Notes under the pieces: model-generated
What the model was told of the DNA's origin: nothing
Databases searched by the model: none
The model's input: the letters and a program-made list of their open reading frames with translations, nothing else
Assembly (NCBI GenBank): GCA_037310415.1
Contig: CP147780.1
Span: 1,952,001 to 2,016,000, forward strand
Reading direction: 5' to 3'
DNA: 64,000 nt
Source: Candidatus Atabeyarchaeum deiterrae
GTDB lineage: Archaea > Asgardarchaeota > Atabeyarchaeia > Atabeyarchaeales > Atabeyarchaeaceae
Made by a program: the position numbers and the translations under genes
Shown: positions 32,447 to 53,267 of the stretch, in pieces
Layout of the letters: each line of letters begins with the position of its first letter
How positions within the stretch are numbered: position 1 is the stretch's first letter

Positions 32447-32941
32447 TTGGCTCAAGAAACAAAAACCAGACCAGCGACGGAGGGCTTGGAAGAATCTGTC
32501 TTCAAGACGCTTAGCAGCCAGAAGAGACGTGACATTATACGTCTGCTGGGAGAAAAGACTGAGGCAACTTTCACCGAGATTAAGCACTCAACTGGAGAAG
32601 ATAGCCCTTCCCTCTCTTACCACTTAGGTACACTTGACAAACTCATCATGCAAAACAAGGGAATGTACAGGTTGTCAGAGTTAGGGCAGGAAGCTCACAA
32701 GCTGATGGACAAAATAGTCTCGTCGGCAACAAGCACGTCCCTGATCGGGTCTGCAAGGAAGACGGTCGCTACAATGATAATTGCTAACGCCATTCTTTGG
32801 GCTGCTGCACTATTCACCGTTTCAGCATTTGAAGGTAGGATCAGTAGTATGACGCTCTACAGTTTCTCGGCGCTTTGGTTCGTCAGCAACATTGCACTCT
32901 ACTCATTATCAAAAAGGCTCGAATGGGGCGGTGCAAGCTAG
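32447..32941 (+). CDS. ArsR-like winged-HTH regulator with two C-terminal TM helices
   Basis: FKTLS...RR.II..L, TFTEI, LSYHL..L, YRLSELG. Confidence 0.82.
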   Translation: MAQETKTRPATEGLEESVFKTLSSQKRRDIIRLLGEKTEATFTEIKHSTGEDSPSLSYHLGTLDKLIMQNKGMYRLSELGQEAHKLMDKIVSSATSTSLIGSARKTVATMIIANAILWAAALFTVSAFEGRISSMTLYSFSALWFVSNIALYSLSKRLEWGGAS

Positions 32942-33967: not shown

Positions 33968-34087
33968 GCCTGTAACCTCCTCGCTCTTCAGAAGTGAGCA
34001 TCTTAGTCTTAAATAACTTGCCGCCCCGGTTTCGATCTAATCATACTTCCTCTGTAGCCTTATGGCTTACCAAGACACAGCGAGAGC

Positions 34088-34167
34088 CCACCACTTTGCC
34101 TGGCTAATCTCTTCTTATCCTTTTCAGACATGAACTTCATTTTCATGCGTCACTCCCTCGAATTCAT
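34088..34167 (-). pseudogene. degenerate copy of the 5' end of the DUF2769 gene at 43971-44297
   Basis: atgaattcg...atgaagttcatgtctgaaaaggataagaa.gagattagccaggcaaag matches the start of that gene, with an in-frame TGA and a 1-nt deletion. Confidence 0.7.
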
Positions 34168-34369
34168 CCGTCAACCTCCCTTCACTCATGTATCTGTCGC
34201 TCATCCGTATAAGTGTGTTCAAGGCTCAAGATCCTGTTACCACGTTTCAACTTAGTTCTTTCGGTAAATTGCCATATCATGAAGTGGTTCCAATAAGATT
34301 ATTACCAGCATCGGGACAGATCCCGCTTCCAGAGAGCAGACTAGGTAAAGGAGGAGATGAGATCCCAAA

Positions 34370-37240: not shown

Positions 37241-37254
37241 TAAAGGTTTATTAG
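37241..37254 (+). promoter_or_regulatory. putative archaeal BRE/TATA promoter of the vWA-PP2C-kinase operon
   Basis: TAAAGG-TTTATTAG, with the TATA-like octamer ending 34 nt upstream of the vWA1 ATG. Confidence 0.55.
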
Positions 37255-37287
37255 CAAGATTCACTACCTTCTCAACGCAATAGCTAA

Positions 37288-38109
37288 ATGAGGTGGTATG
37301 TCTTGGCTCAAGGAGGACCTAAGGAAGCGCTAGCTGGTACTCCAGGGTTGTTTCAGTTGGTAGTGTTTGTCTTGGACGGTTCGGCAAGCATGACCTGGGA
37401 AGGAACCTCAGGTAAGAGAAAAGCCGATGAAGTTTACGATGCAATAGACGCAACGATAAAGTTTTTCAAGACTCAGAAAGACCCCAACCTGAAAGCAGCC
37501 GCACGTTCCATTCTTGTGCAGATGATTGCATTTTCCTCAGATCAACAGGTCAAAGTAATCCTTGACGACTTCACCGCGATAGGTGACGTTGATGTCGACG
37601 ACATAAAACCCCCCTCAGACTACTGGTCTCCACCTGATGGCACCTGCATTCATGGCGCCCTCAGCAGGGCTCAGGAAGAGACGACCAAGTTTGTCCAAGC
37701 CAAAGGTCTCGACATAAGCAGGCTACAGAGACCGACGATTCTATTGCTGACCGACGGATGTGAGAACTTCGACCAAAACAGGCTCCTTGAGATAGCGGAG
37801 GAAATCAAGGCCAAGAAATGGTACCTCGCTGTCGTACAGTACGGAAAGGTTGGCGCAACTGGCCCAGACCCAAATGAAGCTCAAGTGTGCCCTGAGGTCT
37901 TGAAGTCGATCGCAACTTCCATCGAAGGACCTGACTACGATAGAGTGAAGAAGAAGATGGACAAATACTTCAAGAGCACAGAGGAAGATGTCTCAAAGGT
38001 ATTCCTTCACAAAAAACTGTACACCGAGGCCTTGGATGAAAAAGCAGCCAGAATTTTCTTCATCGGTGGCACCACAATATCGTACCTGTCGGGCAGCAAA
38101 GTCGCATAG
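37288..38109 (+). CDS. TerY-like vWA protein 1 (start possibly TTG 37303)
   Basis: MIDAS VLDGSASM, GT, RPTILLLTDG. Confidence 0.85.
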   Translation: MRWYVLAQGGPKEALAGTPGLFQLVVFVLDGSASMTWEGTSGKRKADEVYDAIDATIKFFKTQKDPNLKAAARSILVQMIAFSSDQQVKVILDDFTAIGDVDVDDIKPPSDYWSPPDGTCIHGALSRAQEETTKFVQAKGLDISRLQRPTILLLTDGCENFDQNRLLEIAEEIKAKKWYLAVVQYGKVGATGPDPNEAQVCPEVLKSIATSIEGPDYDRVKKKMDKYFKSTEEDVSKVFLHKKLYTEALDEKAARIFFIGGTTISYLSGSKVA

Positions 38110-38144
38110 ACGGTGTCCTCTTCTGATTCGTCGGGGGAATAGCA

Positions 38145-39539
38145 TTGAAACGTGAGGATGTCTCGTACAACACAGTCTCCACGAAGGAAGTTGGCAACAA
38201 TCTGGTCTTGCTGTACTGTTCTATCTTAAACGATGCCCACGGTGACGACTACGGTGACGTGTTTTCTTCCGATTTTGTGTCAGGCGTCGCCATTGCCGAC
38301 GGCGTTACGGGAACTGAACAAGGCAGCATTGCCTCGCGCATTGCAGTTGAGGAATCATTAAGTCTCATAAAGTCTCTGGATACTATGAGAAAGCAGGACG
38401 TAAATAGAAACATACAAGCTGCGTTCTCTGTAATGGTCAAACGTCTGCCGGAGCTTATCAAGAAGAAAATGGGCTCAAAGATAACTAGTTCAGGTACTAC
38501 ATTGGCTGTTGCGATCACGGACTTGACGAGGCTCTACGTGTTTAACATCGGTGACTCCGACATATTCCTATACCCGTTTGTCAAGGACTACTCAAGCATA
38601 GCCTCACCCGACTACATGAAACTGTCTGCTGGCTTCTCAGGTGGACCAGTTCTACTGCATTCGGTCTCAGATAGTGGGCTTGAAGGCCGCGTTGATCATG
38701 TTGAGTTAGCAGTGCCGATGGATGGCTTTGCGCTCCTGCTTGGTACGGACGGGGCAGACCTCAAGAACAAGGTTGCGAGCCTGTTTGAGAACCTAAGTGC
38801 AGTTTTCAATCAATATCAAAGAAGTCACGGGTCAGGAAAGGAAATGATGTCTGAGGCGATTCATGGGGTACTCACTTCGTACTTGAAGAAGGAGAAGGCG
38901 AAGGACGATGACGGAACAGTCGCCGTCATGACGCTTCTGCCAAAGAGAAGTGAGGACTACTTTAGGGGGTACGTGTCCGTCGCCCGTAGCACGAAACAAT
39001 CGGCCAAGCTTGAACTGCAAGGCAGTAGCGTGCCCGTTGAGGTTCGAGACCTATTTCAGGAACTGACAATCGACACAGTCCCGGACCCAGCCTTTGAGGG
39101 TCATCTGGAGATACGAATTCTTGACAAGATACCGGGACTGAAAGGAATCAGAATGTACAAGTCGTTCGACATTTCAACAAGGGGAAATGGAAGTTACAAA
39201 CTAAAGAACCTGAAAATTGTCTTCAAAGTCGAACAAGAATGGCTAACCAAAATCAACGTCGACACCTCACATGTGAAAGTATTCGGAATTGATGGAGGTT
39301 CCAAACAAGTCGGAGCAACAATGGTCGGCCAGAAAGGCAAGTACTACTTATACTCGGCGGACTTGAAGAACAAGGGAAAACACGCGATAGGGGTCTCCGA
39401 AAGTGACATGAAGGAGACTAAGCCCAAGGAAGAGCCTAGCCAAACGGCTGAAACGAAAAAGCCCCAAGAATCTCCCAACAAGAACGTTGGAAAGAGTAGA
39501 GACCCAAGAGGTTCGTCACAGGAAAAAGGATCATTATAG
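38145..39539 (+). CDS. PP2C-family Ser/Thr phosphatase fused to a PGF-pre-PGF-like domain and a charged tail
   Basis: AIADGVTG, GTT, NIGDS, LLLGTDG, DDDGT; C-terminal FKVEQEWL...V.V...YYLYSA. Confidence 0.82.
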   Translation: MKREDVSYNTVSTKEVGNNLVLLYCSILNDAHGDDYGDVFSSDFVSGVAIADGVTGTEQGSIASRIAVEESLSLIKSLDTMRKQDVNRNIQAAFSVMVKRLPELIKKKMGSKITSSGTTLAVAITDLTRLYVFNIGDSDIFLYPFVKDYSSIASPDYMKLSAGFSGGPVLLHSVSDSGLEGRVDHVELAVPMDGFALLLGTDGADLKNKVASLFENLSAVFNQYQRSHGSGKEMMSEAIHGVLTSYLKKEKAKDDDGTVAVMTLLPKRSEDYFRGYVSVARSTKQSAKLELQGSSVPVEVRDLFQELTIDTVPDPAFEGHLEIRILDKIPGLKGIRMYKSFDISTRGNGSYKLKNLKIVFKVEQEWLTKINVDTSHVKVFGIDGGSKQVGATMVGQKGKYYLYSADLKNKGKHAIGVSESDMKETKPKEEPSQTAETKKPQESPNKNVGKSRDPRGSSQEKGSL

Positions 39540-39572
39540 ACAGAAGAAACTGACTAGAGGATCGTGAAATAG

Positions 39573-40598
39573 ACGCCACACCTGGTCGTAAGTGGACTAG
39601 TACATGATTGGGCTTTCGATGTTGAGCCCTTGAACGTTGTCTCTGCAAATGACATGTACGTGGCGTTGGATAAGAAACATATCATCAAGATAGTGGACAC
39701 GGAATACATAACTCACTTCAGAGGGATATCCAACTACTTCAACCCAAGGCTCACAAGGATCAAGAATAACGTCATAACCATTGCTCAATCCAAAGGTTTT
39801 GATGTGGACTGCTTTCGGGGGGCAGTGAATTCGTGGGAGAAAGCGTTTCCCATAGATTATGGTCCTGCCCGACTAGATGGCGCGAGAAAAGATGCTGGAA
39901 TAGTCAGCAACTTCCTCTCTGGTCATACCCTAAGCAGGTCACTCGCAGCAGGCCTGAAGCTTGGCAAAGATGAAGTAAAGAACATCATCAGGAAGCTCCT
40001 CTACGAAGTAGCGATTATTCACATGAATGATATCGTACACATGGATCTTACGCCTGGAAACATTATTCTCGCCGAAAACAAACGCGACATATACATAATA
40101 GATTGGGACATAGCGCAGATAAGTGACTCCGATATAACTCAAATGATGATCTCATTTCCCGCCGAAACAATGATTCCCCTACCACCCGGCTTCGACCCTG
40201 GGAAAACTCGGAGAGCGCCAAACACGTTCTTCGACATCTGGTATCTTCCTGTGGACATACTAGCAATAATAGCCACATTCGATCGAGATATGAACAAGCT
40301 CTTCGGCGGCGAAATTCCGTCTCCAATGTTCTTTGTTGATTTTCCAACACCAGAAAAACTGCTCGAACTCAGACAATTGCTACAGAATGACAAAAAATCA
40401 AGGAAAAGATGGCCCCCAGACTATGACAAGTTGAAGGGCTATAGATTCTTCCGAAAAGAGGTCAAACGAGACCATCTAGATCATTTCAATGAGTATGTTA
40501 GTAGGTATCTCGACCCTGAGCTATTCCACCACGTTTATCTGGATGCCGCTGATGGTAAGAAGCATCCTACTGCTGATGGTCTTAACAGATTTATCTGA
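39573..40598 (+). CDS. atypical Ser/Thr protein kinase 1 (track start TTG 39630; homology extends to ACG 39573)
   Basis: IIKIVD, HMDLTPGNIIL, IIDWD, FDIWY. Confidence 0.82.
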   Translation, partial: TPHLVVSGLVHDWAFDVEPLNVVSANDMYVALDKKHIIKIVDTEYITHFRGISNYFNPRLTRIKNNVITIAQSKGFDVDCFRGAVNSWEKAFPIDYGPARLDGARKDAGIVSNFLSGHTLSRSLAAGLKLGKDEVKNIIRKLLYEVAIIHMNDIVHMDLTPGNIILAENKRDIYIIDWDIAQISDSDITQMMISFPAETMIPLPPGFDPGKTRRAPNTFFDIWYLPVDILAIIATFDRDMNKLFGGEIPSPMFFVDFPTPEKLLELRQLLQNDKKSRKRWPPDYDKLKGYRFFRKEVKRDHLDHFNEYVSRYLDPELFHHVYLDAADGKKHPTADGLNRFI

Positions 40599-40687
40599 AA
40601 GGAATCGTCAATTCGAAATTCGAACTCATGTGATCAATGTTGACTCAAACCATGTTTCCAACACACAAAAGGTAGGAGTGTGATTTA

Positions 40688-41545
40688 TTGCCCGAAGAGG
40701 TCAAAAACGTCCCATCAGAAGTTAAGAATGTCTCGACAGAAGAGAGAAACGTATCTGCTGTGCCGCCACCAACTCGATCATTGGTTCAATTGGTTGTCTT
40801 TGTTCTGGACGGATCAAAAAGCATGGACTGGAGCATTAACAACAAATCAAAATCCAATATGGTCAAGGAAACACTGAGAAGCATTGTGCGCTATTTCAAG
40901 GACGAAGAACACTGGAAAAAAGAGACCGATACACGCGGCCCTGGAGAAAACATTTTCGTTCAAGTCATAGCATTCGACACGGAAGTTGTAAAGTACTTCG
41001 ATGACTTCGTGAGAATGATCGAGTTACCTGAAGATGCAGTACTATCGCCAACAGAGAAGATTAGGAAGACACTGAAGCGAACCAACAAAGGAACCACTAT
41101 CTCAGTCGGATTGCGCTCAGCCTGGGACTCAATTGGAGACTTCATCAGGAAACGGGAACTCGACATAAACAGAATCTACAGGCCAACAATCATTCTATTG
41201 AGTGACGGATGCACGAACAAAAGCGACCGACAACCACTGCTGGAACTATCCGAAGAATTACTGAAGTTGTACCAGATCTTCGTGATCGAGTTTGGCGAAT
41301 CGGGGCAACAGCCAGAGACTGCCGACTTCCATCGCCAGTCCTGCCCAGAGATATTGGCGAAAGTAGCGAGTCCCTTGGATCCAGGATTGCTTCAGAAGAT
41401 CAAGAGAGTCGGTCAGAGAGTTGACTCAGTGGTAAAAGTAGAGGAGCTCTTCCAAGGCAACAGAGGATACATAAGAACCCTGAATGAAAAGCATCTGCGC
41501 GTTATCTTCATAACCATGACGACACTCGCGATGGTGAAGAAGTAG
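40688..41545 (+). CDS. TerY-like vWA protein 2
   Basis: VLDGSKSM, KGTT, YRPTIILLSDG; GGAGTG site upstream. Confidence 0.85.
   Translation: MPEEVKNVPSEVKNVSTEERNVSAVPPPTRSLVQLVVFVLDGSKSMDWSINNKSKSNMVKETLRSIVRYFKDEEHWKKETDTRGPGENIFVQVIAFDTEVVKYFDDFVRMIELPEDAVLSPTEKIRKTLKRTNKGTTISVGLRSAWDSIGDFIRKRELDINRIYRPTIILLSDGCTNKSDRQPLLELSEELLKLYQIFVIEFGESGQQPETADFHRQSCPEILAKVASPLDPGLLQKIKRVGQRVDSVVKVEELFQGNRGYIRTLNEKHLRVIFITMTTLAMVKK
40691..40753 (+). repeat. three imperfect 21-bp coding tandem repeats (PEEVKNV/PSEVKNV/STEERNV)
   Basis: Visible in both DNA and protein at the vWA2 N-terminus. Confidence 0.75.
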
Positions 41546-41651
41546 AGGACAAGAAGGTGCCTCACGAAAGTCGACGAGAGAGATGTCTCGCAAAGCAAAT
41601 ACACTGAAACTATTTGATAAATGATCCTGACCCACCGTGATAGTGATAGAC

Positions 41652-42701
41652 ATGACTCGATTGCTAGTGCAGGGGATACAAGAGCAAAGATCCTTTGACG
41701 TTAAGCCACTATCCGTGGACTCGACTTACCCTATCTATGTCACAAATGATGAGAAATACGTAATAAAAATAGTTGATGCTAGTCCCATCGACCATTTTGC
41801 CAAGTTGTTCCACTATTTCCATGAGCGGTTTGAAGACGTCAAGAAACATATGACGATAGATGCTCGGAAAAAAGGCTATCCAGTGAACACGATTGACTGC
41901 CTCGGATATGCACTAACATCCATGTGGAGAGCATTCCCTTTTGACTTTGGAAAAGCATCACTCGGCAGTGACAAGAAAGTCGGTTGGGGAATAATCAGCA
42001 ACTACCTTGACGGCATTCAGTTGAACAAAGGTCTAGAGCTTGATCTCAGCCTCGATGTTGAGGATGTGAAGCGCACCATCAGGAGATTACTTTGCGAAGT
42101 CGCCGTAATTCATGCCATCGGAATTGTCCACATGGACATCACGCCACCAAACATCATTCTAAACGCTAATCAAAGAGAGGCCTATATTGTCGACTGGGAT
42201 TTGGCACAGATAAGCGGGTCTGAACTCTTAACGGTGACCGTCGCTTATCCATATGAACAATCCATCCCGCTCCCACCAGGATTCGACCCAAGATTTGCCG
42301 ATGCTACACCTCACACCTTCTTTGACGTATGGTATCTTCCCGTCGACATACTAAACATCATAGCAATCTTCGACCAAGACATGAGACAACTGTTCGGCGG
42401 AAATAGACCATATCCCATGTTTTTCATCAAGTTTCCAACGATAGACAAACTCCGAGGGTTGAAAGCCCATCTCAAGAAAAAGAAGTCTAGAGAAACATGG
42501 CCCCCAGACTATGACGCCGTGAAGGACTACGAGTACTACGATGAGAATGTCACAAAAGAACATCTAGATCGGTTCCGAGAAACACTCAGCAAGTACGTAG
42601 ACCCAGCGCTATTCTACGGAGTCTACTTAGATGCCCTCGACGATCGAAAGCGTCTCAGCGCAATCGACCTCCTAAACCTTCTAGCGGACAATCCGCGCTA
42701 G
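41652..42701 (+). CDS. atypical Ser/Thr protein kinase 2, paralog of kinase 1 (track start GTG 41637)
   Basis: VIKIVD, HMDITPPNIIL, IVDWD, FDVWY. Confidence 0.85.
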   Translation: MTRLLVQGIQEQRSFDVKPLSVDSTYPIYVTNDEKYVIKIVDASPIDHFAKLFHYFHERFEDVKKHMTIDARKKGYPVNTIDCLGYALTSMWRAFPFDFGKASLGSDKKVGWGIISNYLDGIQLNKGLELDLSLDVEDVKRTIRRLLCEVAVIHAIGIVHMDITPPNIILNANQREAYIVDWDLAQISGSELLTVTVAYPYEQSIPLPPGFDPRFADATPHTFFDVWYLPVDILNIIAIFDQDMRQLFGGNRPYPMFFIKFPTIDKLRGLKAHLKKKKSRETWPPDYDAVKDYEYYDENVTKEHLDRFRETLSKYVDPALFYGVYLDALDDRKRLSAIDLLNLLADNPR

Positions 42702-42808
42702 CCAACTCGGTTGAATTTCCCAGAAGTAAGACTAATACCACACTTCCACTTATTCAGCTGCTATCGCAACCTAGGCGAGCTCCACCCGCATGCAAAAGGC
42801 GAAACACC

Positions 42809-43597
42809 TTGCTACAACCAATCAGACCCAAACTTGCTATTATCCAGCCAGTTGTTTTCGTTCTAGACGGGTCAGTAAGCATGGACTGGCATGTGGGCGC
42901 AAAGAGCAAGTCCAACTTGGTGAGAGACACACTGAGGTTTATCGTCAACTACTTCAAGAGTGGAGAACGAAGCAAAAGGGAAGGCGACTTCTCGGGAGAT
43001 TACATATACATCCAAATAATCGCATTTGACGTCCAACCAGTGAAGTATTTTGATGATTTTGTCAGAATATCTGACTTGAATGAAGATGAAATACCGTCCC
43101 CTACTGACAAGATAAGGAGTACGTTGAAACGATCCAATAAGGGGACACTCATCTCACTGGGATTGCAGTCAGCCAGAGAATCAATAGAATCCTTCATCAT
43201 CAAGAATGAACTCGATTTGAGGCAGATCTACAAGACGGCGATAATCTTGCTGAGCGATGGTTGCACAAACAAGGAAGACGTCAAGCGGTTGGAAGATATT
43301 TCGAAGGAGATTAACGCACTGTACAACGTTTTTGTTATCGAATTCGGCGAACCCACTTTCATAGCAGGCTCAAGTAGATTCCATCGTCACTCATGCCCAG
43401 AAACTCTGCAAAAAGTGGCTAGTCAAGTCAACTCTGAGCTTCGTCGAAAATACCGTAATGTCGCGCGACGGTTCGAGTTGGCAGTAAATGTGGACGAGTT
43501 TTTCATAAACGACAGACTATACATCAGGACCCTAGATGAAAAGCATCTGCCAGTGATCTTCATTACCATGTCGACCATCAAGAAAGTCATAAGTTGA
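42809..43597 (+). CDS. TerY-like vWA protein 3, close paralog of vWA2
   Basis: VLDGSVSM, KGTL, IILLSDG. Confidence 0.85.
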   Translation: MLQPIRPKLAIIQPVVFVLDGSVSMDWHVGAKSKSNLVRDTLRFIVNYFKSGERSKREGDFSGDYIYIQIIAFDVQPVKYFDDFVRISDLNEDEIPSPTDKIRSTLKRSNKGTLISLGLQSARESIESFIIKNELDLRQIYKTAIILLSDGCTNKEDVKRLEDISKEINALYNVFVIEFGEPTFIAGSSRFHRHSCPETLQKVASQVNSELRRKYRNVARRFELAVNVDEFFINDRLYIRTLDEKHLPVIFITMSTIKKVIS

Positions 43598-43970: not shown

Positions 43971-44297
43971 TCACTTGAGTCCCCCAAGAAGCGTATCAAA
44001 CATCTGTTGAGTTCTTGTGGCTTTAATGCAGCAATACTCATCTCTTGAACCCGCTTGAACTGCTACCGGACAGCTTCTGCAGACGCATCCCTTCTCGTTT
44101 TTGATTTTCGTGCTTCTTACGTTAATTGCGCAAAAGTTCTCCCGATCCTCACCCGTTCCCTTGTACGTGGGACATCTAGGACAGTCGCACGTCACACCAT
44201 TTTGCCCGGGCGGATTCCATGGCTTTGCCTGAATAATCTTTTTCTTATCTTTTTCAGACATGGGCTTCATGTTCCCGCGTTCCTCCGCCGAATTCAT
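43971..44297 (-). CDS. DUF2769-like Cys-rich (Fe-S/Zn) protein
   Basis: CDCPRCPTY...FC...GCVCRSCPV...YCC. Confidence 0.8.
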   Translation of the reverse strand: MNSAEERGNMKPMSEKDKKKIIQAKPWNPPGQNGVTCDCPRCPTYKGTGEDRENFCAINVRSTKIKNEKGCVCRSCPVAVQAGSRDEYCCIKATRTQQMFDTLLGGLK

Positions 44298-44657
44298 CAG
44301 TAATCACATCCAAGAAGCAGACTGATCCCTTATCGCGCCTCAAATTCTATCACTATCCCTTCTTCTTCATCAAAGCGGTCTTTCCCTTGATATCGTATTT
44401 ATAGGTTTCCGTACGACGCATTCCCAAGAGAAGAGAAATGAGAGTAGCCTGTCGAATCTCATCGTGTTCCGATTTTCTTGAACGATGCTTTGCTCACCCT
44501 TTCCGTCGATGATTGCTTCTGTGAGAATTTGGGCGAACAATCGATGGGCCCTGTTCCAAACTCGTTGACTTCACAGTCCTTTTGCCTGCGAACGCTCCTA
44601 GAAACTTTATTATGCGAGCACAACACAAACCTGCACACACTGTCTTTCAATACTAAA

Positions 44658-45771: not shown

Positions 45772-45957
45772 TTGAGGCGAACTCGAGTGTCGCGCTCGAA
45801 ATCGGCGCACAACAAGGAACAGGAGTTGCTGCAGGAGGCCATAATGCTCCGCGCAATAGGTCCAGCCGAGTCTCTGAGGATCGTATCTGAGTTGACCGAC
45901 TTTGCAATCAAGATGAACAAGGTGACTGAAAATAGTGCAGAAGAAAAGAACCATTGA
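45772..45957 (+). CDS. small putative antitoxin/partner of the downstream nucleotidyltransferase
   Basis: 61 aa, LRAIGPAESLRIVSEL; overlaps the next gene. Confidence 0.5.
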   Translation: MRRTRVSRSKSAHNKEQELLQEAIMLRAIGPAESLRIVSELTDFAIKMNKVTENSAEEKNH

Positions 45958-46525
45958 AGACTTGGTGAAGGAACTTGCAGTGACTCTAAGCCAGCTCGGA
46001 ATGGATTACGCGATTGTCGGTGGAATCGCAGCGACCAGTTGGGGAAATGTGAGGACAACACTGGACATCGACGTCGTCATGAATATCAAAGTTGAAGATG
46101 CACCAGGTCTAGCTAGTGCACTAAGGGAACGGGGCTTCTCACTTACAGAGAACGACATTATAATGGCTCTCAAAGAGAAGTCACACTTCACCGCGCATGA
46201 CGAAAAGTCACTTCTCCGTATCGACGCAAAGGGAGCATATGGGCAGAGAGAGCTTGAAACCTTACGCACCAAGAGGAAGATCCTCATCGAAGAGACTGAG
46301 ATCTACCTGGCATCTCCTGAAGATATGATCGCCAACAAACTTCTCTCGGGAAGCGAACAGGACATACGGGACGCTGAAGGCATGTACGCTAGGCAATTCC
46401 AGCACATTGACATGAATGGTCTGAGGAGCGCTGCAAGGAAGTTAGGCGTGTCGGCGCAGCTGAACAAGATGGAGAACAGAATCAGAAAAAGGATAAACGA
46501 TCTGTCCTCCAAGCGCCGAGCATGA
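45935..46525 (+). CDS. DUF6036/AbiEii-like nucleotidyltransferase
   Basis: VGGIA...WG..RTT.DIDV, SPED.IA.KL, D..DA. Confidence 0.85.
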   Translation: MQKKRTIEDLVKELAVTLSQLGMDYAIVGGIAATSWGNVRTTLDIDVVMNIKVEDAPGLASALRERGFSLTENDIIMALKEKSHFTAHDEKSLLRIDAKGAYGQRELETLRTKRKILIEETEIYLASPEDMIANKLLSGSEQDIRDAEGMYARQFQHIDMNGLRSAARKLGVSAQLNKMENRIRKRINDLSSKRRA

Positions 46526-49987: not shown

Positions 49988-50249
49988 ACATTATGGATAT
50001 TAGGTTCTTGAACATTGCGTTAATTCATTCGCCCATGCCTGCTGTGTACCCTATCAGCAAGGGAGTTCGCGACAACGAGCAACTGTCGCCAAGCTAGACT
50101 AAGAAGGCAAAACGCCAAGTAGATGTCAACGCTATGATAGGAACATGAGAAATGAAAAGCTCTATATAATGCAATATCCTATCCAGAGGTTGAGCGGGAA
50201 ACGCGAAGGCTTTTCGAGAGTCAAACACCGCTCCCCCGGGGTGAGGAAG

Positions 50250-50534
50250 ATGAAGAGGGAAGAAGTTTATAAGAAAATCGCGCAAGAACTCAGGAATCTC
50301 GGCGCAACAAAAATAGCAGTATTCGGCTCCTATGCGAGAGGCGAAGAAAAACCGAACAGCGACATAGACGTTCTTGTCGAATTCTCAAATAGGAAAAGTC
50401 TCCTAGAACTTGTGAGGATAGAGAGAGAACTATCTGAGACTCTCGGAATAAAAGTGGATCTATTGACGGAGAAGTCGATCAGCCCGTACCTCATCGATTC
50501 GATAAAGGAGGAGATGGAGGTAATCTACAGTTGA
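50250..50534 (+). CDS. mntA: minimal nucleotidyltransferase (MNT) antitoxin
   Basis: FGSYARGE....SDIDVLVEF, KVDL. Confidence 0.9.
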   Translation: MKREEVYKKIAQELRNLGATKIAVFGSYARGEEKPNSDIDVLVEFSNRKSLLELVRIERELSETLGIKVDLLTEKSISPYLIDSIKEEMEVIYS

Positions 50535-50887
50535 AGAAAGACGACACATTCTACCTGAGACACATACTCGACGCCATATCTAGAATCGAAGAATACTCTC
50601 ATAGAATTGTGTATAAGGACTTCAAAGACAACCACCTCGTCCAAGACGGGATTATCAGACAGATCGAGATAATTGGCGAAGCCACAAAGAAACTCTCCAA
50701 ACAAACAAGAGAGAAAAGCCCTGCAATACCTTGGAATGATATGGCAGGGATGAGGGACAAGCTGATACACGACTATTTCGGTGTAGACACCGACGCCGTC
50801 TGGGACACCGTTGAGAAAGACATCCCATCGCTCAAGAGCAAGTTGAAGAACATCATCGAAACGAAGGGAAAACAAAAGCCCCCGTGA
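50531..50887 (+). CDS. hepT: DUF86/HepT HEPN RNase toxin
   Basis: IIGEA, GMRDKLIHDYFG (RxxxxHxY); 4-nt overlap with the MNT gene. Confidence 0.9.
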   Translation: MKKDDTFYLRHILDAISRIEEYSHRIVYKDFKDNHLVQDGIIRQIEIIGEATKKLSKQTREKSPAIPWNDMAGMRDKLIHDYFGVDTDAVWDTVEKDIPSLKSKLKNIIETKGKQKPP

Positions 50888-52847: not shown

Positions 52848-53267
52848 TTATCGCAAGTACTTTCTCACAAATTCGGTTGGGCTCAATGACTGGATCTCGC
52901 TCCCTTTCCTAAGCATGTCGTCTTTTGTCACAAAGCATTCTGCGCCGACAATTTCTGCTGAGGCGAGGATAATTGCATCAGGAAGCTTCATCTTCTGATC
53001 AGCGCGCAACCTAGCAGCTCTATCGGCAACTTGAAGATCTACCAGCGAGACTTGCCAGCTTTGAGTAACATGTGTGAGGAAGTCTTCTGCTTCTTTTTCT
53101 TCCTTGTTCTTGTAGAATCCCACTAGAGTCTCGGCAATGACAATCGATGAGACTACTCCTTCTATTTCTTTGTCATCGACCGCGTCGAGTATCTTTTCGC
53201 ATTGATGTGCGTCAGCTTCAGTATTCTTTACAGCGATGAATACACTTGTATCGATGCAGACCTTCAT
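52848..53267 (-). CDS. vapC: PIN-domain VapC toxin
   Basis: IDTSVF, E, LPDAII.ASA, TKD. Confidence 0.9.
   Translation of the reverse strand: MKVCIDTSVFIAVKNTEADAHQCEKILDAVDDKEIEGVVSSIVIAETLVGFYKNKEEKEAEDFLTHVTQSWQVSLVDLQVADRAARLRADQKMKLPDAIILASAEIVGAECFVTKDDMLRKGSEIQSLSPTEFVRKYLR

Follow-up and report, generated by a model that had tools for sequence, protein, structure and literature searches.

Six linked vWA, PP2C and kinase genes in an Asgard archaeon: a candidate phosphorylation switch with a duplicated kinase–vWA unit

Modules composed of von Willebrand factor A (vWA), PP2C phosphatase and protein kinase domains are widespread. To our knowledge, nobody knows what the vWA protein does in vWA–PP2C–kinase modules or what triggers the switch. 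An expanded module of this kind, an array of six genes encoding three vWA proteins, one PP2C and two kinases, lies in a 64,000-nucleotide stretch of the genome of Candidatus Atabeyarchaeum deiterrae (contig CP147780.1, positions 1,952,001 to 2,016,000; this whole stretch, numbered from its first nucleotide, is called the window). The system that it most readily recalls is TerY-P, in which a TerY-like vWA protein and a PP2C accompany a Ser/Thr kinase with a fused zinc ribbon or, in the anti-phage form, a fused OB fold (PMC11090510, PMC7699616). In these two papers TerY-P is traced to a hypothesis of Anantharaman, Iyer and Aravind in 2012 and to the stand-alone anti-phage system of Gao et al. 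in 2020, in which TerY-P triads are said to shield Escherichia coli from T7-like phages.

The array resembles TerY-P in combining vWA proteins that retain an intact metal-ion-dependent adhesion site (MIDAS) with a PP2C and Hanks-type kinases; its first three genes likewise follow the order vWA–PP2C–kinase, and the PP2C gene adjoins a vWA gene. It differs in several respects. The array kinases, of 322–354 residues, lack a C-terminal zinc ribbon or OB fold and have no cysteine cluster; its kinases number two and its vWA proteins three; a β domain and a coiled coil are added to the PP2C; and the whole occurs in an Asgard archaeon. In the loci examined, neither ter genes nor CoCoNuT/McrBC systems were seen to be linked to it. 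The TerY model of PADLOC matches vWA1 only, over 34 residues at an E value of 7.7e-4, and finds nothing in vWA2 or vWA3, and the STK_OB and phosphatase models match none of the six proteins; otherwise PADLOC returned only generic kinase matches for the array proteins and their triad relatives (described below). A search of NCBIfam gave nothing specific for the array proteins. The first-pass annotation of this DNA, made from the letters alone, had named the locus a divergent TerY-P-like system. That name suits the composition and the gene order of the first three genes, but not the results of the PADLOC models or the kinases, which have neither tail.

Considered together, the anatomy of the array, its evolutionary history and a switch-type mechanism form an account that is, in our judgment, probably correct, if by no wide measure; the biological role is kept out of this estimate. 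A bolder proposal is that the array represents an undescribed family of phospho-switches apart from TerY-P, in which the N-terminal peptide of a MIDAS-bearing vWA protein would hold and gate a bare eukaryote-like kinase, as a docking clamp or pseudosubstrate, and two channels would share one phosphatase within a single Asgard lineage. As a whole this proposal is distinctly doubtful.

Six plus-strand open reading frames (ORFs) span positions 37288–43597. They encode vWA1 (37288–38109, 273 residues), PP2C (38145–39539, 464 residues), kinase 1 (39630–40598 when read from the first canonical start, 322 residues; the start used by its orthologues is at 39564), vWA2 (40688–41545, 285 residues), kinase 2 (41637–42701, 354 residues) and vWA3 (42809–43597, 262 residues), with spacers of 35–107 nucleotides between genes. 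Each protein has a Pfam match above the gathering score: VWA_2 and VWA for vWA1, PP2C_2 (E 3.8e-12) for the phosphatase, Pkinase for both kinases, VWA_2 for vWA2 and VWA for vWA3. The order of co-oriented genes is thus as the first-pass annotation had read it. All six genes recur in this order in four other metagenomic loci, L004, L010, L011 and L066, which with the window makes five complete arrays, and partial arrays occur in L005, L069 and G002/LC30, so that synteny is seen elsewhere. The order is unchanged in every carrier, over synonymous divergences (dS) greater than 2. The six-gene cluster is real and selectively maintained, and all of its genes retain intact catalytic or MIDAS residues.

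Each of the six vWA sequences that were aligned keeps the MIDAS motifs DxSxS (here DGSxS), GT and DG unchanged, and the motifs are likewise invariant among the three paralogues and their orthologues; the intact MIDAS earlier read in each of the three proteins is therefore upheld. In vWA1 the invariant residues are D30, S32, S34, T119 and D156. This protein is the product of the most conserved gene in the array, with 89–90% identity to its orthologues at dS greater than 1.4. vWA2 bears a Ser/Thr-rich N-terminal extension, and the orthologues of both vWA2 and vWA3 are labeled YegL by JGI. A search of the sequences in the PDB with the vWA profile gave no match, and none was found for vWA1 by tblastn among 72,556 plasmids.

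The kinase residues Lys, HxD, Asn and DxD are invariant across 22 relatives. They correspond to K20, H137-x-D139, N144 and D158-W-D160 in kinase 1, numbered from its TTG start, and to K44, H165-x-D167, N172 and D186-W-D188 in kinase 2. Both sequences have HMD instead of HRD, DWD instead of DFG, and a degenerate glycine-rich loop, and the Pfam match covers the catalytic-loop region only. The AlphaFold2 model of kinase 2 (confidence score pLDDT 89.6; predicted template-modeling score 0.90) is a complete two-lobed protein kinase fold spanning residues 4–354, with no added domain. In VIA-align comparisons the model gives Z scores of 15–17.7 against many eukaryotic kinases, the top match being 8yhf_A (Z 17.7, root-mean-square deviation 3.5, 257 residues aligned); the top Foldseek matches are CK2, CDK and GSK3 (E ~1e-7, TM 0.43–0.52), and no subfamily is prominent. 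By sequence and modeled fold, then, the two proteins qualify as Hanks-type Ser/Thr kinases, with two lobes, a catalytic lysine, an HxD…N loop and a magnesium-binding aspartate.

In the alignment of PP2C sequences the motifs GDD, DGxxG (ADGVTG), GDS, TDG and DDDGT are invariant, the metal-binding aspartates included. The gene begins 35 nucleotides past vWA1, and the distance is 29–35 nucleotides across all loci. The protein is laid out as a catalytic domain (residues ~1–265), a conserved β-rich domain (~268–422) and a short charged tail. Relative to orthologues of 553–599 residues, the PP2C of this genome lacks about 135 residues of a C-terminal coiled coil, which in the relatives is about 180 residues long, while the last ~25 residues are kept; the deletion is seen when window positions 39411–39539 are compared with L004:7240–7762. 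The model of the protein is poor (pLDDT 43 with five sequences). In this low-confidence model the β domain, residues 268–422 (window 38946–39410), has weak fold matches to the β-sandwiches of ZU5, GAIN and FIIND (Z 7.4–9.3), and its sequence matches PGF-pre-PGF below threshold (25.1 bits against a cut-off of 28). These matches serve as leads only. As read from the sequence, a conserved GHLE in the β domain stands without the Ser/Thr nucleophile of autoproteolytic ZU5/GAIN sites. A Protein Atlas feature search with this domain gave scores of 0.88 or less, which are uninformative, and a search of PDB sequences with the PP2C profile matched only coiled-coil proteins, in the tail.

The array bears the marks of duplication. 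Kinases 1 and 2 are about 50% identical, and their alignment displays the common motifs IPLPPGFDP, TFFDxWYLPVDIL and WPPDYD, all three of which had been picked out in the first reading. vWA2 is 56% identical to vWA3 and 34% identical to vWA1, in keeping with the earlier impression that the second and third vWA proteins are the closer pair. At the DNA level, direct repeats spaced 2052–2091 nucleotides apart match kinase 1 to kinase 2 and vWA2 to vWA3; the repeated unit is therefore one kinase gene plus the vWA gene that follows it. The tandem duplication of a kinase–vWA unit, which had been proposed from shared motifs, is borne out by both the paralogue identities and these repeats. Beyond these three vWA proteins, two kinases and one PP2C, the 2.76-Mb single-contig genome has no member of the respective families, and no second PP2C_2 gene.

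Phylogenetic trees of the vWA and kinase proteins were rooted with single-copy triad proteins as the outgroup. The Njord vWA proteins form one clade (support 93/94), in which vWA1 (100/98) stands opposite vWA2 plus vWA3 (89/97), and the Njord kinases form one clade (100/99) that contains kinase 1 (97/100) and kinase 2 (81/90). Because every array position has its own orthologue in every carrier, these trees place both duplications, that of vWA1 versus vWA2/3 and then that of the kinase–vWA unit, after the split from the triads and before the divergence of the sampled carriers.

Ratios of nonsynonymous to synonymous substitution (dN/dS) were estimated by NG86, for which L004 and L010 provide an unsaturated pair (dS 0.6–0.9). 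For this pair the ratio is 0.008 for vWA1, 0.058 for PP2C, 0.032 for kinase 1, 0.027 for vWA2, 0.071 for kinase 2 and 0.042 for vWA3. In all other computable gene pairs it is 0.10 or less; the ranges over pairs are 0.03–0.05 for kinase 1, 0.02–0.06 for vWA2, 0.05–0.10 for kinase 2 and 0.04–0.07 for vWA3. Such values indicate that all six genes are under strong purifying selection. With ratios of 0.10 or less, the duplicated kinase–vWA unit is therefore not decaying, and neutral evolution of the extra copies, which would have spoken against the array as a functional whole, is contradicted by their values of 0.03–0.07.

How a vWA protein might contact a kinase is suggested by a predicted complex of kinase 2 and vWA3, each supplied as an alignment. 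The complex scored 0.76, whereas the best of three controls scored 0.00. Of 80 solved complexes 58 attained that mark, as did 2 of 110 mismatched pairs; these counts are approximate here because custom alignments were used. The runs share at least 81% of contacts, and the partner pLDDT is at least 77. Residues 2–12, 52–65 and 133–139 of vWA3 are predicted to rest on residues 204–212, 251–271 and 300–313 of kinase 2, where residues 204–212 lie between DWD and PPGFDP, in the activation/P+1 region. The MIDAS residues are outside the predicted interface. Paralogue-specific kinase residues, conserved inside each paralogue but unlike between the two, occupy 10 of the 46 interface positions and 30 of the 294 positions elsewhere, a marginal enrichment (Fisher p 0.045) of the kind that pair-specific recognition would predict. 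The model thus supports binding of kinase 2 to vWA3 through the N-terminal peptide of the vWA protein, and the structure prediction proposed along with the first reading, which assigned each kinase its own vWA protein, fits a pairing of one vWA per kinase.

The peptide itself is strongly conserved. vWA3 has 16 orthologues at 78–89% identity, in which residues 2–12 (LQPIRPKLAII) are invariant, with L2, P4, I5, P7, L9, A10 and I11 among the invariant residues. It contains no Ser or Thr. In the alignment of paralogues, the positions of K8 and A10 are occupied by Thr and Ser in vWA2, and that of K8 by Thr in vWA1.

In the mechanism envisaged here, each kinase would pair, as a heterodimer, with the vWA protein whose gene immediately follows its own. 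The peptide ahead of the first vWA strand would lie along the C-lobe of the kinase beside the activation segment, where it could occupy a docking or pseudosubstrate site, and the MIDAS face would be left free for an acidic or phosphorylated ligand. vWA3 might then serve as a nonphosphorylatable partner for docking or as a pseudosubstrate, whereas vWA1 and vWA2 could be substrates, since they have Thr, and vWA2 also Ser, at the places equivalent to the vWA3 peptide. The single PP2C, tightly linked to vWA1 and equipped with β-sandwich and coiled-coil modules, would reset both channels. Because no effector domain is encoded, the output would most likely be phosphorylation of other proteins by the two kinases. 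So construed, the array would be a phosphorylation switch complete in itself and specific to one lineage, that of Njordarchaeota-type Asgard archaea.

The first reading had placed all six genes behind one TATA-like box. A BRE/TATA-like motif, AAAGGTTTATTAG, does occur at 37242–37254 on the plus strand, about 35–45 nucleotides before the vWA1 start codon, and the motif, AAAG(A/G)TTTATT(T/A), stands at an equal distance before vWA1 in L004, L010 and L011; it is a putative promoter. A second motif, AAG(A/G)CTAATA(C/G), lies at 42728–42738 on the plus strand, 70–80 nucleotides before vWA3, and may be a second promoter. It is present in the window, L004, L010 and L011, in the last of these despite three foreign genes that separate kinase 2 from vWA3. 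Since this second conserved motif precedes vWA3 and stays with it after the L011 insertion, a single promoter for all six genes is doubtful. The box before vWA1 is indeed conserved, but the second motif and the foreign insertions, which have not led to loss of the genes downstream, argue against its serving the whole array.

Five contigs of a small wetland metatranscriptome (X8) match the inside of the array at 99% identity or more. One is from vWA1, two are from PP2C, one covers the end of vWA2 and the spacer to a point 8 nucleotides before kinase 2, and one is from kinase 2; the library is so tiny that the absence of contigs from kinase 1 and vWA3 is uninformative. These contigs are compatible with expression and with read-through from vWA2 into kinase 2.

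Kinase 1 poses a problem at its 5′ end. The GTG start of its orthologues, at 39564, is followed by AAA and an in-frame TAG (39570–39572), then by 19 conserved sense codons (39573–39629) and the TTG at 39630. The GTG-AAA-TAG arrangement occurs in four sequences, those of the window, L005, LC30 contig L035 and G002 (the last identical here to L035); in other relatives the TAG position is occupied by Arg, Pro, Glu or Thr. The codons between TAG and TTG encode the first two strands of the N-lobe. Because these codons show six synonymous changes and one nonsynonymous change between the window and LC30, the 19 codons upstream of TTG are probably translated. A near-cognate (ACG) start or read-through of the stop would be needed for such translation. 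Peptides from the stretch TPHLVVSGLVHDW would bear on translation from upstream of the TAG. Pyrrolysine at the TAG was considered and set aside: no PylS scores above the cut-off in the genome, and no CUA tRNA was found, a weak negative because aragorn recovers few tRNAs. Over the whole genome (G000), aragorn finds only about 24 tRNAs even when introns are allowed, which suggests that many tRNA genes are atypical or bear introns.

The array is rare. Homologues are named by their sources "Candidatus Njordarchaeota archaeon" and "Promethearchaeati archaeon isolate LC30", and array DNA has been found in freshwater-sediment and wetland metagenomes. By word-index searches the kinase family comes to only about 20 clusters in 15 billion proteins, and HMMER, run exhaustively over 1.84 billion representatives, gives one cluster at E <1e-30. 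A scan of the genome collection with the kinase profile returned only the LC30 metagenome-assembled genome, plus unrelated kinases. In G001, a closed and 96% complete genome from the same family, kinases and vWA proteins of the array type are both missing. Among 301 sampled Asgard genomes, a related PP2C is present only in this family and one other, in the latter with no vWA or kinase context. The array is thus confined to one small Asgard family and is accessory within it. In the other family the nearest PP2C relatives flank a Ras-family GTPase in a PP2C-Ras-PP2C operon with a 4-nucleotide overlap (L046:8973–11333, genome G267), which hints at phosphatase control of small GTPases.

The surroundings of the array vary from locus to locus. 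In the window the immediate flanks are metabolic genes, encoding an alcohol dehydrogenase, an α/β hydrolase, an epimerase and a cyclase. The upstream flank encodes a 965-residue HEPN-domain protein in L004 and L010 and a KaiC-like ATPase in L011; downstream, in several loci, are genes for a HAD hydrolase, a HIT protein and Arf/Ras GTPases, the last at 0.5–2 kb from the array in five related loci. A functional link to the HEPN protein is rejected, because its homologue is far from the array in this genome, and a link to the GTPases is weakly supported, given about 18 copies in the genome by tblastn and an orthologue about 58 kb away. Foreign genes have also entered the array. In L066 an IS605-type TnpB separates vWA2 from kinase 2 (L066:4956–6200), and in L011 and L069 kinase 2 is parted from vWA3 by a trio encoding an ArsR-type helix-turn-helix protein, an AHSA1 protein and a glyoxalase (L011:8687–9891, L069:1300–2504); in each case the genes downstream are kept.

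What the switch serves can be weighed only against this background. That the array senses stress or invaders, as a switch for conflict, is the role we place ahead as our best guess, although it falls short of being probable; regulation of a normal cell process comes next and is somewhat less likely again. Several points weigh against the conflict role. The very low dN/dS and long-stable gene order are not what such a role would suggest; the six-gene array encodes no effector domain and no nuclease; PADLOC yields no STK_OB, phosphatase or significant system match; and the immediate flanks in the window are metabolic. The defence role proposed in the first-pass annotation thus stays a hypothesis. 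Nor did the TA-rich region that had been placed after the array appear, 400-bp windows downstream having a GC content of 0.45–0.54, compared with 0.43–0.51 inside the array. As to the mechanism, the complex score is a model confidence for the single pair modeled, close paralogues often pass such predictions too, so that pair specificity is no more than a possibility, and the interface enrichment is marginal. The RNA contigs are assembled from one small library, with possible DNA carry-over and no transcript ends.

The conflict role in its strongest form would make the array a true anti-virus system, the archaeal equivalent of TerY-P, in which infection would be sensed through the vWA proteins or the accessory domains of PP2C and the kinases released to phosphorylate viral or host proteins. 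The action of the kinases would stop the infection or the cell, and two kinase–vWA channels would widen the range of triggers. This reading is unlikely, if far from negligible. It draws on the protection against T7-like phages that PMC7699616 and PMC11090510 attribute to TerY-P triads of the same composition in E. coli, on the nearest single-copy triads, which adjoin either an insertion sequence (IS) or a type IV restriction gene, GmrSD, together with an HD protein, on a patchy distribution (none in G001) with variable flanks, on toxin–antitoxin-like genes (DUF6036, MNT, PIN) and TnpB a few kilobases downstream in the window and L066, and on the HEPN-domain protein upstream in L004 and L010. 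Yet the TerY match is weak and partial and STK_OB and phosphatase matches are lacking, the kinases have no OB or zinc-ribbon tail, dN/dS of 0.008–0.07 and fixed order over dS >2 would be unusual for fast-turnover defence genes, the neighbors in the window (alcohol dehydrogenase, α/β hydrolase, epimerase, cyclase) are metabolic, and the HEPN homologue is remote from the array in this genome. Control of an ordinary cell process, by analogy with the archaellum network of Sulfolobus, where eukaryote-like kinases phosphorylate the vWA protein ArnB, with its partner ArnA, and a phosphatase resets it, so that a complex changes between a loose and a tight state, seems comparably doubtful in that specific form. 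Archaea do offer a precedent for vWA adaptors controlled by phosphorylation, to judge from PMC6509490, PMC12852372 and PMC7472852. The very strong purifying selection (0.008 for vWA1), a composition fixed in all carriers, environmental RNA contigs that suggest expression without known infection, the metabolic neighbors in the window, the Arf/Ras GTPase genes 0.5–2 kb downstream in five related loci and the Ras GTPase flanked by the nearest PP2C relatives in other Asgard archaea all favor such regulation. Still, the array is linked to neither an FHA partner nor a target gene; the GTPase gene is about 58 kb away here, and with about 18 such genes the adjacency elsewhere may be shared synteny; and the array is missing from G001 and from other Asgard families and therefore cannot serve a core process, an absence that within the same family also speaks against a housekeeping role. 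Much the least probable reading, and one close to refuted by the selection data, is that the extra kinase–vWA copies are redundant leftovers of a recent duplication or that the array is an annotation artefact without joint function. The in-frame TAG at codon 3 of the orthologous frame of kinase 1, the loss of ~135 residues of coiled coil from PP2C and the intergenic gaps of 35–107 nucleotides might be taken as signs of it, but each gene has an orthologue in every carrier at dN/dS of 0.1 or less, the catalytic and MIDAS residues are invariant, the duplication is older than the divergence of carriers with dS >2, and past the TAG the sequence changes in the manner of coding DNA (six synonymous changes to one nonsynonymous).

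The toxin–antitoxin-like genes downstream of the array in the window encode a DUF6036 nucleotidyltransferase (45935–46525), an MNT-type nucleotidyltransferase with an overlapping partner ORF (50145–50887) and a PIN nuclease (52848–53267). They are scattered among detoxification genes for glyoxalase, DJ-1 and metallo-β-lactamase proteins.

A direct repeat, 82% identical between its copies at 34112–34171 and 44242–44301, brackets 10.1 kb that includes the array (features 34085–34231 and 43971–44301). The left copy is an ~88-bp fragment of the 5′ end of a DUF2769 gene, followed by the promoter region that the DUF2769 gene has in G001; on the right the repeat forms the 5′ end of an intact DUF2769 gene (43971–44297, minus strand) that has a different upstream region. 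This topology looks like an integrated circle or a scar of rearrangement. In G001 a homologue of the window ORF at 32447–32941 adjoins the HAD gene found after the array in L004. The adjacency hints at loss or absence of the array there, in genomes too rearranged for a clean comparison of an empty site.

The claim made for the array is modest: its parts are of known kinds, and its role may be defence or cell regulation. Several features nonetheless make it worth pursuit. The array kinases form a bare, compact family that should be tractable, and a kinase and a vWA protein that were duplicated together and long retained amount to a natural experiment. The contact of the vWA N-terminal peptide with the kinase C-lobe is a specific, testable prediction; if true, gating of a kinase by this peptide would for the first time assign the vWA partner a concrete structural role in a vWA–kinase–PP2C system of any sort, TerY-P included. 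The array also gives the Asgard archaea one more lineage-specific signaling system; the small GTPases and eukaryote-like kinases of these archaea bear on the origin of eukaryotic signaling.

Comparison with other linked sets of these domains helps to place the array. In E. coli K-12, yegL-pphC/yegK-yegI encodes the same three domain types, with the vWA and PP2C genes adjacent in like order. YegL, PphC and YegI show only short, motif-level matches to the array proteins (hhalign probability 5.5%, 1% and 31%), in a comparison limited by single-sequence templates; YegI, at 648 residues, has a long tail, in contrast to the bare kinase domains of the array, and E. coli has one copy of each gene. Actinobacterial GAP1-N2 GTPase systems include linked kinase, PP2C and vWA genes (Kaur, Burroughs, Iyer and Aravind 2020, PMC7159879). 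The likeness there lies in neighboring genes for a kinase and a PP2C, both active, and for a standalone vWA protein, and in the proposed control of complex assembly through vWA–peptide contacts (PMC7159879).

Within the archaea, PMC6509490, PMC5300886 and PMC12852372 describe a complex of the Sulfolobus vWA protein ArnB with ArnA, the state of which is set by eukaryote-like kinases and a phosphatase. The resemblance of the array to ArnA/ArnB of Sulfolobus acidocaldarius, drawn from these descriptions, is that of an archaeal vWA complex controlled by Ser/Thr kinases (ArnC/ArnD) and a phosphatase. The Sulfolobus system differs in that the partner of the vWA protein is an FHA protein, the phosphatase is PP2A rather than PP2C, and the kinases are encoded elsewhere in the genome.

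The nearest relatives of all three protein types are found in single-copy triads from metagenomes (L013/L014, L049 and L050/L051, with kinases P0085, P0202 and P0204); no such vWA–kinase–PP2C triad was found in a profile scan of 185,579 species representatives. Homology to the array extends over the full length of the proteins, at 22–28% identity for vWA, 25% for PP2C and 24–26% for the kinase, and the triad kinases share the WPPxYD, HxDLxPxN and DxD motifs with the array kinases. The triads have one copy of each gene in the order vWA–kinase–PP2C, and their PP2C extension is N-terminal, not C-terminal as in the array. A conserved fourth gene, encoding 278 residues, follows the triad in two loci; one triad adjoins GmrSD and an HD protein and another an IS transposase. 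A Njord-type WPPxYD family may be defined here by a kinase with WPPxYD, PLPPGFDP and DWD that is encoded with a homologous vWA protein and PP2C, and the array qualifies for it. By sequence comparison the array is TerY-P-like in composition and, by the tests run, not a member of TerY-P; it belongs to a distinct and much rarer sequence family, in which the kinase–vWA units are doubled.

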